This document shows positions 3,329-62,937 of a stretch of 64,000 bases of DNA, piece by piece; position 1 is the first letter of the stretch; every line of letters starts with the position of its first letter. The position numbers were made by a program, and so were the translations under genes. Origin of the DNA: Pyrinomonadaceae bacterium. GTDB taxonomy: Bacteria > Acidobacteriota > Blastocatellia > Pyrinomonadales > Pyrinomonadaceae. The stretch covers positions 10,384 to 74,383 of the forward strand of contig DATIBJ010000063.1 of the NCBI GenBank assembly GCA_035457565.1, in the 5' to 3' direction. The notes beneath the pieces were generated by a model. That model had not been told where the DNA came from. It made no database searches and saw only the letters and a list, made by a program, of their open reading frames with translations.

Positions 3329-3491
<163 letters not shown>

Positions 3492-28694: not shown

Positions 28695-28742
28695 CCCAGT
28701 CTTTGGTTTTGGTGTTTGGTTGCGAATCCGACCTTTCTTCGA

Positions 28743-33921: not shown

Positions 33922-33996
33922 ATTGTCGATTGCCGATTGCCGATTTGGCGGTCACAGCAACGTCCAATCGGCAATCGGAAATTGGCAATCGGCAAT
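33922..33996. repeat. Hairpin of ATTGCCG words
   Basis: attgtcgattgccgattgccgatttgg faces ccaatcggcaatcggaaattggcaatcggcaat. Confidence 0.85.
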
Positions 33997-35451: not shown

Positions 35452-36827
35452 TCAGGAGCAGGAGCAGCAGGCTGGAGCAGGCAAAAGCAAGAATCGCGGC
35501 TGCTACGATTGCCCTTGTGCTTTCGTTGTGCGCGGGTTCAATCGCGCAGCAAATCGGTAATCCTACAGCTCAGGAAGGTGTGCTTCCACCACGCGGAACG
35601 TTTGTCATTCGCAATGCTCGCATCGTAACGGTCAGCGGTCCAGACATCGAGAACGGTTCAATCGTCATTCGAGACGGCAAGATCGAAGCAGTTGGTGCTG
35701 CAGTCAACGCACCGGCAGGCGCGCACCAAATCGATGGACGTGGACTGTCAGTCTATCCGGGCATGATCGACGCCGGCACGAGCATGGGTCTCGTTGAAGT
35801 ACCGCAAGGGGCAAACGGCACGGTTGACACGGCCGAAGTCGGTGATTTGAATCCCAACGCAAAGGCTTACATTGCGATCAATCCGCACAGTGCGCACATC
35901 GCGGTCACGCGAGTCGATGGCGTCACAAACACGTTGAGTTCGCCAACCGGCGGATTGATCTCGGGACAGGCTGCATTAATTAACCTGCTCGGCACGAGCC
36001 CAAAAGAGATGGCGGTTGTGCCTTACGCCGCGCTCGTGATCAATTACCCGCGCATCGGCGGAGGTGGCGGAGGTTTTGGCGGCTTTCAACAGCAACCGGC
36101 AAACCTTGCCGACACACTGACCGCAAACGAACGACAGTTGGAACAGATTCGAAAAATGTTGCGCGACGCCGAAGCGTATGCGCGCGCACGCGATGCTTAC
36201 AAAGCAGATCCAAAACTGCCGCGTTCTGACATGAACATTGTTTTGGAATCGCTTGTGCCGTACGTGCGCGGTGAGCGACCTGTGATTTTCAGAGCTGATC
36301 GGGAAGCTGAGATTAAAGGTGCTCTGAAGTTTGCGGAAGAGATGAAGTTGAAACCGATCATTCTGGGTGGAAACGACGCGTGGAAAGTTGCGACGCTCTT
36401 GAAGGAGAAGAACGTCCCTGTGATTCTGACAGGCGTGTTTGAGCTCCCTTCGCGTGAAGACGATTTCTACGATCAGCTCTATGAGAACCCATCAAAACTT
36501 CAGCAAGCCGGAGTTCGGTTTGCTATTTCGACCGGTGACGCCGGCCCTGAGGTTCGGAATCTACCGCTGTATGCAGGCATGGCGTCGGCTTTTGGATTGT
36601 CGAAGTCCGACGCCTTGAAGGCAGTGACGCTCTATCCTGCGCAGATTCTGAATGTCGCCGATCGGTTAGGCTCAATCGAGCCGGGTAAAACGGCGAACCT
36701 GGTAGTCACGGATGGCGATCTGCTGGAGATTCGGACGCACATTCGCTATCTATTTATCGATGGCCGCCAGGTGCCGTTGACAAGCCGTCACACGGAACTA
36801 AACGATGCGTTCAAGGATCGGAAGTAG
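35448..36827 (+). CDS. Secreted amidohydrolase-family paralog 3 (HxH site not conserved)
   Basis: Start taken at ATG 35448 (ATGA overlap with the upstream stop, GGAAGGAG RBS). VYPGMIDAGTSMG at the HxH position. GSIEPGKTANLVV. Confidence 0.8.
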   Translation: MIRSRSSRLEQAKARIAAATIALVLSLCAGSIAQQIGNPTAQEGVLPPRGTFVIRNARIVTVSGPDIENGSIVIRDGKIEAVGAAVNAPAGAHQIDGRGLSVYPGMIDAGTSMGLVEVPQGANGTVDTAEVGDLNPNAKAYIAINPHSAHIAVTRVDGVTNTLSSPTGGLISGQAALINLLGTSPKEMAVVPYAALVINYPRIGGGGGGFGGFQQQPANLADTLTANERQLEQIRKMLRDAEAYARARDAYKADPKLPRSDMNIVLESLVPYVRGERPVIFRADREAEIKGALKFAEEMKLKPIILGGNDAWKVATLLKEKNVPVILTGVFELPSREDDFYDQLYENPSKLQQAGVRFAISTGDAGPEVRNLPLYAGMASAFGLSKSDALKAVTLYPAQILNVADRLGSIEPGKTANLVVTDGDLLEIRTHIRYLFIDGRQVPLTSRHTELNDAFKDRK

Positions 36828-36960
36828 GTCCTTAGTCTTTGGCCTTGGGCCTTGGGTCTTAGGTCTTCAGCCTTCGGCCGTTGGCCTTTGGTCTTCGGCC
36901 TTTGGTCCTTAGCCTTTGATCTTTGTCTTCGTCCTTAGTCTTTGGGTTTTTGCTCTTTGC
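36828..36960 (+). repeat. Direct array of about 19 degenerate CTTTGGN/CCTTGGG heptamers
   Basis: tctttgg ccttggg ccttggg tcttagg tcttcag ccttcgg ccgttgg cctttgg tcttcgg cctttgg ... starts at the stop of the amidohydrolase gene. No full inverted partner is adjacent. Confidence 0.9.
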
Positions 36961-42633: not shown

Positions 42634-42749
42634 GCCGTAGAACTTTGTGCTTTGTACTTTGTGCTTTGTGTTTGCCGGACGACTAAGTACAAAGTTCCAA
42701 GCCCCGATTAGACTATTTACGATTCACGATTTACTATTCACCAAATCAC

Positions 42750-57334: not shown

Positions 57335-57463
57335 GATGTTCGATAAACTTCAGTTTGTCGTCAACGCACGGTCGCTCAACTGCTTTCAAGAATCTGGCGA
57401 GCGATTACTGAAAGAACTTGAGCATAGTGTACGTTGACGACAAACTGAAGTTTATCGAACATC
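57335..57463. repeat. Perfect 32-bp inverted repeat GATGTTCGATAAACTTCAGTTTGTCGTCAACG with 65-nt loop
   Basis: 57335-57366 is the exact reverse complement of 57432-57463. The right arm begins at the purL stop codon. An 18-nt half copy lies at 15149-15166. Confidence 0.95.
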
Positions 57464-59720
57464 ATTCCATGCCGGCGGCGATCGCTTCAGCTTCGAGCTT
57501 GTGCGACAGCGCAGTGCGCCAGGCAGTTTCTAATTCCGAGACTTCAAGCGCGATTAGTTCGTCGGCGTTGACGGAGATACGTAAGATAGTTCCGGTTACG
57601 CGACCGATCACGGCGACCGGCGTATTGTTCCTACCGGCAATGCTTTCCAACTCCACAAGGTTCGCCGTGTCGACGCTTACGATTATTCTGGAAGGTGATT
57701 CGCTGAACAGTGTGACGACCGAAGATAAAGGGCTCTCGAGTTTAATATGAGCACCTATTGAGGATCGACCGAGTGTTGAAAAACAACTCTCCGCGAGTGC
57801 AACGGCCAAGCCTCCGTCAGAACAATCATGCGCTGACTGCAACAACCCTGCTTCTGCGGCTTCGATACACGTCCGCTGAACGCTCAATTCGCGATTGAGA
57901 TCGAGTTTGGGAACCGGAGCGCCTGCAGCGTGACCTTCAGCGCAAACGGCAGCATATTCACTGAGCGAGAGATCGTTTTCGGTAGTGCCAATGAGAACTA
58001 CAATATCGCCCTCTTTTTTGAAACCCGGTTGCACGACGCGCCGCACGTCTTCAATCAACCCAACCATGCCGATGACGGGTGTCGGAAGAATGCCGCGACC
58101 TTCAGTCTCGTTGTAGAAGGAGACGTTACCCGAAACCACTGGCGTTCCCAACGCACGACACGCTTCGGCCATTCCATCAACCACCTCCGAGAACGACCAC
58201 ATCACTTCGGGTTTTTCCGGCGAAGCGAAATTCAGACAGTTGGTAATCGCAACCGGTCTGGCTCCAACGCACACGACATTTCTCGCCGCTTCCGCCATCA
58301 CTAGTTTCGCACCCTCCCGTGGATTGGCAGCGCAATAGCGGCCATTGCCGTCAAGCGTCATCGCCAGGGCGCGTCGAGTTTCCTTGATCCTTACAACCGC
58401 AGCGTCCGCGCCCGGAAGTATCGCCGTGTTGGTTCTTACCATGTGGTCATACTGGCGGTAGACCCATTGCTTCGAAGCGATGTTTCCCGATGCCAACAGC
58501 TTCAGCAGATCAGCCGTCTGATTTGTTTTTTGATCTTCGAACTTTGGACTTTGGACTTTGGACTTTGGACTTTGGACGAACGGTTTCATCGGTCGGTCGT
58601 ATCGCGGTGCTTCGTCCGTAAGTGCCGCAACTGGAATGTCAGCGACTTTTGCACCGTCGTGAATAACCTGCATTCGACTGGTGTCGCGCACGCGACCGAT
58701 CACTACTGCATCGAGATCCCACTTGCGAAAGATGTCCATAACCTCTCGCTCGCGTCCGGAGTGAGCGACGATCAGCATTCGCTCCTGCGATTCAGAGAGC
58801 AGCATTTCGTACGCTGTCATTCCCTCTTCTCGCTGCGGCACTAAGGAGAGATCGAGTTCGATTCCCGTCCCTGCGCGTGACGCCATTTCACAGGATGAAG
58901 AGGTTAGACCTGCGGCACCCATATCCTGAATACCAGCGACAGCACCGCTTCGCATGGCCTCGAGACACGCTTCCAGCAAAAGCTTTTCGAGAAACGGGTC
59001 TCCAACCTGTACTGTTGGTCGCTTCTCGAGGGCTTCGTCATCAAACTCAGCTGACGCCATCGTCGCTCCGTGAATACCGTCGCGGCCCGTTTTTGCTCCT
59101 ACATACAAAACAGGATTGCCGATGCCCGTCGCTTTGCCAAAGAAGATTTGATCGTGACGGACAAGACCGAGAGCAAAAGCATTGACGAGGGGGTTCAGAG
59201 CGTACGCATCATCAAATGCAACTTCTCCACCTACCGTTGGGACGCCGAACGCGTTCCCGTAATGCGCAATGCCCGCAACAACACCAGCAAGCAACGACCG
59301 ATTGCGACGACCATTGTGCGCATTGTCGAGTGACCCGAAACGCAGGCTATTCATCGCCGCGACGGGGCGCGCGCCCATCGTGAAGATGTCGCGAAGAATA
59401 CCGCCGACGCCCGTCGCCGCGCCTTGAAACGGTTCGATGAAGGAAGGGTGATTGTGCGACTCGATCTTGAAAGCAGCACACCAGCCATCACCTAAGTCGA
59501 TCACGCCGGCGTTCTCGCCTGGCGGCACAATGACCCGTTCTCCTGTCGTGGGCAGTCGCTTCAAATGCACACGCGATGACTTGTACGAACAATGCTCCGA
59601 CCACATCACGGAAAAGATGCCGAGCTCAACGAGCGTAGGTTCTCGACCCAGCAGCTCTTTTATTCGTTGATATTCTTCCTGAGTGAGGTTGTGAGCAGAG
59701 ATTACGTCTGGAGTGATCAT
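57462..59720 (-). CDS. purL: Phosphoribosylformylglycinamidine synthase subunit PurL
   Basis: 752 aa. [30 protein letters not shown], duplicated PurM-like domains. Confidence 0.97.
58541..58577. repeat. Five tandem ACTTTGG heptamers inside the purL coding sequence
   Basis: (actttgg)x5 on the plus strand. On the coding strand it reads gtccaaa... and encodes [13 protein letters not shown]. Confidence 0.95.
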
Positions 59721-60977: not shown

Positions 60978-61115
60978 CATTGCCGATTTTTGATTGCCGA
61001 TTGCTGATTTGAGTTGGTTGAGACTGTTAGTTCTGCTGGGAAGCTCAATTCAACAGTAACGACAGACTTTGAGTTTAAGGAACAATCGGCAGTCGGCAAT
61101 CAGAAATCGGCAATG
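60978..61115. repeat. Inverted repeat of ATTGCCG-type words with about 70-nt spacer
   Basis: cattgccgatttttgattgccgattgctgatt faces aatcggcagtcggcaatcagaaatcggcaatg, in a divergent promoter region. Confidence 0.85.
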
Positions 61116-62859: not shown

Positions 62860-62937
62860 GTTTGGTTGGCCCTGGGCCTTTGGTCTTTGGCCTTGGGCGA
62901 AGCCAGGCACACCAAAGACCTGAGACCAAAGACCCTC
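62860..62937. repeat. Hairpin of CTTTGGN words
   Basis: gtttggttggccctgggcctttggtctttggccttgggcg faces caccaaagacctgagaccaaagaccctc, between convergent stops. Confidence 0.85.

Follow-up and report, generated by a model that had tools for sequence, protein, structure and literature searches.

Heptameric long simple sequence repeats (SSRs) are represented by GGGAATC in Xanthomonas and by GGGGA(C/T)T in Nostoc (Rehm et al. 2015, PMC4692102), and TAACTGA repeats are found in Beggiatoaceae and cyanobacteria (MacGregor 2015, PMC4679880). The short tandemly repeated repetitive (STRR) sequences of Calothrix (Mazel 1990) and a general excess of heptamers described in 2007 are also cited in PMC4692102. 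The published bacterial heptamer SSRs are described as intergenic, with under-representation in coding DNA (PMC4692102, PMC4679880). Here a heptamer array is described that is translated. It is situated in purL on contig DATIBJ010000063.1 of a Pyrinomonadaceae metagenome-assembled genome (MAG; GCA_035457565.1), within a stretch of 64,000 nt that was analyzed as a whole and is termed the window. We consider it likely, with good confidence, that a heptanucleotide microsatellite, translated as part of a disordered linker of PurL, accounts for the array. It would be a spill-over of a genome-wide and mostly intergenic repeat class, and would have no dedicated DNA function in purL.

The repeat class resembles the known heptameric SSRs in several respects. 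The units are 7 nt long, are in tandem with 2 to 20 or more copies, and are in excess genome-wide at period 7 only; they are mostly intergenic, often form inverted pairs near gene ends, and are present as several unit variants per genome. It differs in its lineage (Acidobacteriota, Blastocatellia) and in its units, i.e., CCAAAGT, ATTGCCG and CGAAATC. Unlike the published families, the purL copy is translated in a housekeeping enzyme and recurs there across the genus. In the literature library searched, no paper was found that connects heptamer repeats with Blastocatellia. The finding extends the heptamer phenomenon to the Acidobacteriota, for which no published description was found.

Two other systems can be compared with the purL locus. 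Rickettsia palindromic elements (RPEs) are in frame and translated, and are present in conserved metabolic genes where the fold tolerates them (PMC10969869). The purL array is likewise a normally non-coding repeat that is translated in frame in a conserved protein, at a site that the predicted structure presents as tolerant. However, RPEs are discrete palindromes of ~150 bp with a conserved peptide, whereas the purL array is direct, varies in copy number and has neither a partner arm nor a fixed length. Simple-sequence contingency loci include the tetranucleotide tracts in phase-variable genes of Haemophilus and Neisseria (e.g., PMC12721329). The purL repeat is similar to these in that its unit, which lies inside an open reading frame (ORF), has a length not divisible by 3, so that slippage by one unit changes the frame. 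It differs in that the tract is short (5 units), in that its gene is a housekeeping gene present once in the genome of a soil bacterium that lives freely, and in that out-of-frame unit-number alleles of purL were not observed among the assemblies compared.

The features of the locus are as follows.

57462..59720, minus strand: purL, encoding phosphoribosylformylglycinamidine (FGAM) synthase subunit II (small PurL) of 752 aa, with matches to NF002290 and to structure 3VIU (template modeling score, TM, 0.90)

58521..58619, minus strand: DNA of the linker between the two halves of the protein (residues ~368-400), a coil with the lowest predicted local distance difference test (pLDDT) values, hypervariable among relatives

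58541..58577, minus strand: perfect array core, (CCAAAGT)x5.3 on the coding strand, encoding the 13 residues 382-394

58522-58542 (58522..58540 when the core is left out), minus strand: three decayed units, GTTCGAA GATCAAA AAACAAA, downstream of the core in the coding sense

On the plus strand of the window, Tandem Repeats Finder (TRF) reads positions 58541-58577 as ACTTTGG x5.3 with 100% matches (score 74), and the array has the head-to-tail 7-nt units in at least 3 copies that characterize heptameric long SSRs. The array starts at codon 382, in phase 0. The three decayed units encode ..FEDQKTN. They are included in part in a period-21 TRF row (58529-58574), and the alignment with relatives L119, L120 and L121 shows them to be homologous to extra units present there. 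The decayed units adjoin the core, and thus the full array comprises ~8 units.

None of the six frames of CCAAAGT contains a stop codon. Whichever sense frame is read, a single cyclic peptide results, PKSKVQS, a hydrophilic sequence with abundant Pro, Ser, Lys and Gln; from the antisense frames, hydrophobic FGLWTLD would be obtained. All purL arrays of the CCAAAGT family are translated in the hydrophilic orientation. By computation, PurL ends prematurely at 398-410 aa when 1 or 2 units are gained or lost, and remains in frame when the number of units changes by 3. An earlier note on this DNA, made from the sequence alone, had reported five tandem ACTTTGG units translated within purL and had given the same frame arithmetic; both hold, the first by the TRF matches and the identity of the 752-aa ORF as PurL. 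Its further statement that only changes of 21 nt are tolerated proved too strict, as relatives differ by 15 nt and the three frames encode one peptide.

The ORF at 57462..59720 on the minus strand is the sole long ORF that crosses the array, and its product is PurL. It scores 1045.9 bits against the NCBIfam equivalog NF002290 (cut-off 648) over residues 12-740, and 952 bits against TIGR01736 (cut-off 526). The domains PF18072, PF00586 and PF02769 (twice) make up the duplicated AIRS/AIRS_C architecture, and Thermus thermophilus PurL (3VIU) matches the product with an E value of 1.6e-201. An AlphaFold2 model from a 54-sequence alignment (mean pLDDT 87.9, predicted TM score 0.90) has the PurL fold, with a TM of 0.90 to 3VIU by query length and 0.96 by target length. 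The gene is single copy, with one match in the genome, and the nearest relatives of this PurL are ~92% identical in aa sequence.

In the model, residues 368-400 join the N-terminal (A1-B1) AIRS/AIRS_C half to the C-terminal (A2-B2) half. The segment has no secondary structure and is the least confident internal part of the protein, with pLDDT means of 51 and 58 in its 10-residue blocks and values below 50 at residues 386-392. By HMMER, it pairs with an unconserved stretch of 3VIU (~370-395) with a net difference of 2 residues. Low-complexity interdomain linkers rich in Pro, Ser, Lys and Gln are hydrophilic unstructured spacers whose length and sequence drift freely. The PurL linker differs from such ordinary linkers in that it is made by a 7-nt repeat at the DNA level, which produces a 7-residue period in the peptide, and not by codon-level drift.

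Linker sequence and length vary across more than 150 orthologs. The linker described here has ~46-48 residues between anchors, and repeat-free orthologs from other families of the class are equally long. In 119 full-length relatives (80-92% identity) there are 43-53 residues between the AP.Y and QYDHMV anchors, and these linkers are rich in decayed QSPKS or QSTK heptads. In certain partial relatives the linker exceeds 100 residues. The overall range, from ~43 to more than 100 residues, indicates that the site is permissive, and provides a natural test of the freedom of the PurL inter-half linker in both length and sequence. As the segment has the same length as in Thermus PurL and in repeat-free relatives, the repeat fills a pre-existing variable linker and does not form a new loop. 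Some Pyrinomonadaceae PurL sequences (P0170, P0176 and P0235) have linkers of ~100 or more residues, in which Ala/Gly/Pro/Ser-rich low-complexity sequence follows a short heptad remnant, EVQSSKFKVQS; these illustrate how far the linker can be extended.

Period-7 arrays of 3-10.4 units are present in the linker of 17 of the 25 purL orthologs of the genus whose DNA was available; the remaining 8 have no linker array, and none is found in 14 orthologs from other families of the class. Most of the congener units are one-substitution variants of GTCCAAA (GACCAAA, GCACAAA, GTCCCAA, GTCCAAC). Three species have other unit families, i.e., GTTTCGA/AACTCGA in L006, CGAGAGT/CCAGACT in L029 and AGTCTGG/GACTCCT in L035, and in L006 and L035 these are inverted pairs. 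At least 4 unit families are thus found at the linker, and their spread on the purL tree is patchy. In this tree, which was computed with the linker masked, all members of the subclade of the window (L001, L119, L120, L121 and L010) have GTCCAAA arrays. A sister group of nine is mostly array-free, and 10 of 11 members of the other major clade have arrays, belonging to several unit families.

A DNA alignment with the closest relatives (~92% aa identity) shows the same left flank, followed by 4.6, 8.7 and 9.7 units of the GTCCAAA type with scattered substitutions. These arrays are positionally homologous to that of the window but are decayed, and at least one of the length differences among relatives, 15 nt, is not divisible by 21. 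When (CCAAAGT)3 was sought with up to 2 mismatches, 0-185 matches per genome were found in the congeners and 11 in this genome, and 14 of 16 genomes from other families had none. None of the five zero-match congeners whose purL was examined has a period-7 array in the linker.

In the genome itself, a 5.57-Mb Pyrinomonadaceae-type MAG of 260 contigs, perfect arrays with 3 or more units occur 136 times at period 7, vs 5, 12, 5 and 9 times at periods 5, 6, 8 and 9, respectively. The longest perfect period-7 array genome-wide is 37 nt, and thus the purL array is unsurpassed. Of the 1219 non-redundant arrays found by TRF, 668 have periods divisible by 7, including period 7 in 419, period 14 in 186 and period 21 in 55. 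An array was counted as within a gene if the frame stayed open for 100 codons or more to either side of it. By this measure, 16 of the 668 lie inside long ORFs and 652 outside, vs 120 inside among the 551 arrays whose period is not divisible by 7. The 16 consist largely of chance matches with two copies of a 14-nt period, and the convincing cases of heptamer arrays within genes are limited to purL, an inverted pair in lhr and one array at a gene junction. The purL copy is a rare coding exception within a mostly intergenic class.

Several unit families coexist in the genome. The ATTGCCG/CAATCGG family contributes 66 of the 136 perfect heptamer arrays, typically as intergenic inverted pairs (in the window at 3345-3491, 33922-33996 and 60979-61009); others are ATTGATG, GATTGTT, GGGGAAA and CGAAATC. 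The window also contains four intergenic arrays with words related to that of purL.

36825..36945, no strand assigned: intergenic degenerate CTTNGGN array of the same word family, not part of purL

62866..62934, no strand assigned: intergenic inverted pair with TTGGCCT-type and ACCAAAG-type arms, same word family

42643..42674, no strand assigned: intergenic array of CTTTGTG x4.7, which departs from the family word by one substitution

28702-28721, no strand assigned: intergenic array cited in the earlier note, with a degenerate family word

Outside of the window, at C3:28048-28078, (ATTGCCG)x4.4 is found at the junction of an ABC-transporter permease gene and a periplasmic sugar-binding protein gene, in one frame and with no stop codon between. 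It is either a repeat-encoded linker in a fusion or an intergenic array read through by chance.

A second hot spot is present in the Lhr helicase gene. Relative to Mycobacterium smegmatis Lhr (5V9X), the protein of this genome has an insertion of ~38 residues between the DEIH motif (II) and the SAT motif (III). The DNA that codes for these residues is an inverted pair, with one array of the TTCGGAA type and one of CGAAATC (C149:26558-26674, locus L122, outside of the window). Across the genus the loop has 22-61 residues between fixed anchors, and period-7 arrays of several unit variants are found there in 11 of 21 genomes. As the Lhr loop also holds heptamer arrays, purL is one instance of a general behavior in the genus.

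These data bear on the origin of the array as the earlier note had seen it. Its suggestion that an intergenic-type repeat occupies a permissive PurL linker is well supported by the structure mapping, the hypervariability of the linker, the genus-wide arrays and the genome-wide family. The word class CTTTGGN, which it had assigned to purL and the four intergenic arrays alike, is only approximate: the arrays exist, but their words are the degenerate CTTNGGN or CTTTGTG. The alignment of orthologs and the structure mapping that it had proposed place the segment in a low-confidence coil of variable length, and no linker array was detected in the 14 orthologs from other families. A lineage-specific loop insertion is rejected, however, because every PurL has this linker and its length here does not exceed that in Thermus PurL or in relatives that lack the repeat.

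The following sequence of events is considered likely. The heptamer class would have proliferated in this Pyrinomonadaceae-type genus, chiefly in intergenic regions, and the purL array would be one local copy. The unit CCAAAGT is stop-free and hydrophilic in all sense frames, and an exposed unstructured linker can therefore be made of it. We infer that the array is altered by replication slippage, point mutation and homogenization of units, and that the changes are neutral. In a single-copy housekeeping gene, only net frame-preserving changes would persist. Between species the outcome would be rapid turnover, with 3-10 units, other unit variants, or no array. Since all frames of the array encode one peptide, a unit slip could be rescued by a small nearby indel with little effect on the protein, and such rescue would fit the occurrence of length differences not divisible by 21 nt. 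The peptide most likely serves solely as a flexible spacer.

These results show that a genome-wide and mainly intergenic repeat class can supply the linker of an essential enzyme, and do so recurrently across a genus (purL and lhr) and with fast turnover. The locus is also a concrete and datable example of non-coding repeat DNA becoming protein sequence. Knowledge of purine synthesis is unchanged by the finding.

Several observations weigh against a passively drifting microsatellite. That so many species have arrays at one linker could be due to selection favoring the repeat, or to insertion directed there, and not to mere tolerance. The presence of 5 perfect units amid decayed relatives requires a recent expansion or homogenization, and hence a tract that is mutationally active; no conspecific sequence is present in the protein collection, where the nearest among 5.8 billion clusters is 92% identical. 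In addition, 4 of 5 purL frameshifts in long-read MAGs from GTDB lie within ~20 codons of the linker, which exceeds uniform error, and uniform assembly error does not fully explain this clustering. The preferred explanation is that they are probably consensus errors arising where co-assembled strains differ in linker length.

Alternatively, the arrays of the genus might be a self-propagating or factor-recognized class, and not passive microsatellites, that would repeatedly settle in disordered linkers of conserved genes (PurL and Lhr) and be retained there, or the linker might be a true mutational hot spot within populations. Both are considered unlikely. In the first case, the in-gene copies would couple purL and lhr to a system that acts on hundreds of intergenic arrays; in the second, the frameshift clustering near the linker in long-read assemblies would be partly real.

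A functional role at the nucleic acid level should also be considered, although it is judged decidedly unlikely. The repeat DNA or its mRNA might be bound by a heptamer-recognizing factor, which could be one that also acts on the intergenic arrays or a single-stranded RNA binder of the cold-shock type, or the repeat might pace translation between the two halves of the protein. The recurrence of arrays at the linker in 17 of the 25 congeners despite differing units is consistent with such a role, as are the second conserved hot spot in lhr and the regulatory roles proposed for intergenic heptamer arrays elsewhere (PMC4679880, PMC4692102). However, 8 of the congeners have no linker array, and the unit sequence, with at least 4 families, is not conserved. 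No hairpin partner arm for the purL array is found within 350 nt on either side, and thus no hairpin is formed. An Rfam search over purL gave no family match, and yielded only sub-threshold microRNA (miRNA) look-alikes on a hairpin past the stop codon. A translational pause caused by rare codons was considered and rejected, as none of the unit's seven codons is rare; even TCC, the least used of them, has a frequency of 6.3 per 1000. The hairpin past the stop codon is a long one, at 57339-57459, directly after purL; the sub-threshold matches are to RF01926 and RF03597, both miRNA precursor models, and are taken to be false positives because the hairpin is a perfect inverted repeat.

That the array is instead the remnant of a discrete transposing hairpin, inserted in frame in the manner of RPEs and not grown in place, appears very unlikely. 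Inverted array pairs are indeed found in the purL linkers of L006 and L035, the Lhr loop of this genome is an inverted pair, most of the intergenic copies are hairpin pairs, and the behavior of RPEs is comparable (PMC10969869). The copy in the window, however, is a single direct array without the partner arm of a palindromic element. At the homologous position, close relatives show continuous variation in both the number of copies and the sequence of the units, as growth in place predicts, and neither a fixed element length, nor terminal repeats, nor target duplications, nor a linked transposase was seen.

A contingency locus, in which slipped-strand mispairing in the tract would reversibly silence and restore purL, and with it the de novo synthesis of purines, in a subpopulation, is regarded as highly improbable. 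The truncation of PurL by changes of 1 or 2 units of a length that is not a multiple of 3 would suit such a switch, the perfect tract suggests recent activity, and public assemblies hold frameshifted purL alleles near the linker. The nature of these alleles argues otherwise. In 4 of 5 few-contig MAGs purL is split, each time by one inserted base. The insertion precedes the linker in L032 (purL of G007), lies in repeat-free linkers in L030 (G010) and L034 (G016), and follows directly after the array in L033 (G008). A search with the N-terminal half found further truncated alleles on long contigs, three of which were examined; one of these, L153, has a 1-nt insertion after the linker. In all five of these alleles the 1-nt insertion lies outside of the heptamer units. 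The other two, L151 with irregular 8-nt units in the array and L152 with two frame changes within ~40 nt, do not look like whole-unit changes either, and among the located frameshifts none arises from a change in whole units.

The frameshifted alleles come from few-contig assemblies or those with Flye-style names. Genes in the 20-kb surroundings of purL also contain frameshifts in 4 of 5 of the GTDB MAGs, about one per 2-4 kb, and these assemblies are therefore error-prone. The split purL genes of long-read MAGs were accordingly rejected as evidence of switching. All short-read orthologs that cover the linker are in frame, and the 119 full-length relatives have no frameshift. Five perfect units are also few for a high-rate switch. 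In Haemophilus, the switching rate depends on repeat number. Moreover, purL is not a surface or restriction-modification gene. The slippage-prone on/off switch, which had been offered as the second explanation of the array, thus finds no support.

There is a negligible chance that the perfect array is a misassembled or collapsed repeat; the MAG is in 260 contigs, and an even spread would place fewer contig ends of relatives in or just after the linker than are seen, but a read is longer than the 37-nt array, the frame is uninterrupted, and orthologs bearing homologous arrays are collinear with it on both flanks.

Two observations on the assemblies of relatives may be added. Among the partial PurL sequences P0121-P0240, from short-read assemblies, 23 of 75 contig end points fall at residues 378-431, which is above an even spread and fits assemblies breaking at a dispersed repeat. 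The repeat points to positions that are prone to breaks or frame errors in metagenome assemblies and gene calls. In L035 (G024:C85, a short-read MAG), purL lacks residues ~237-315 and shows frame changes there, as a result of either a deletion or pseudogene formation, or of misassembly.

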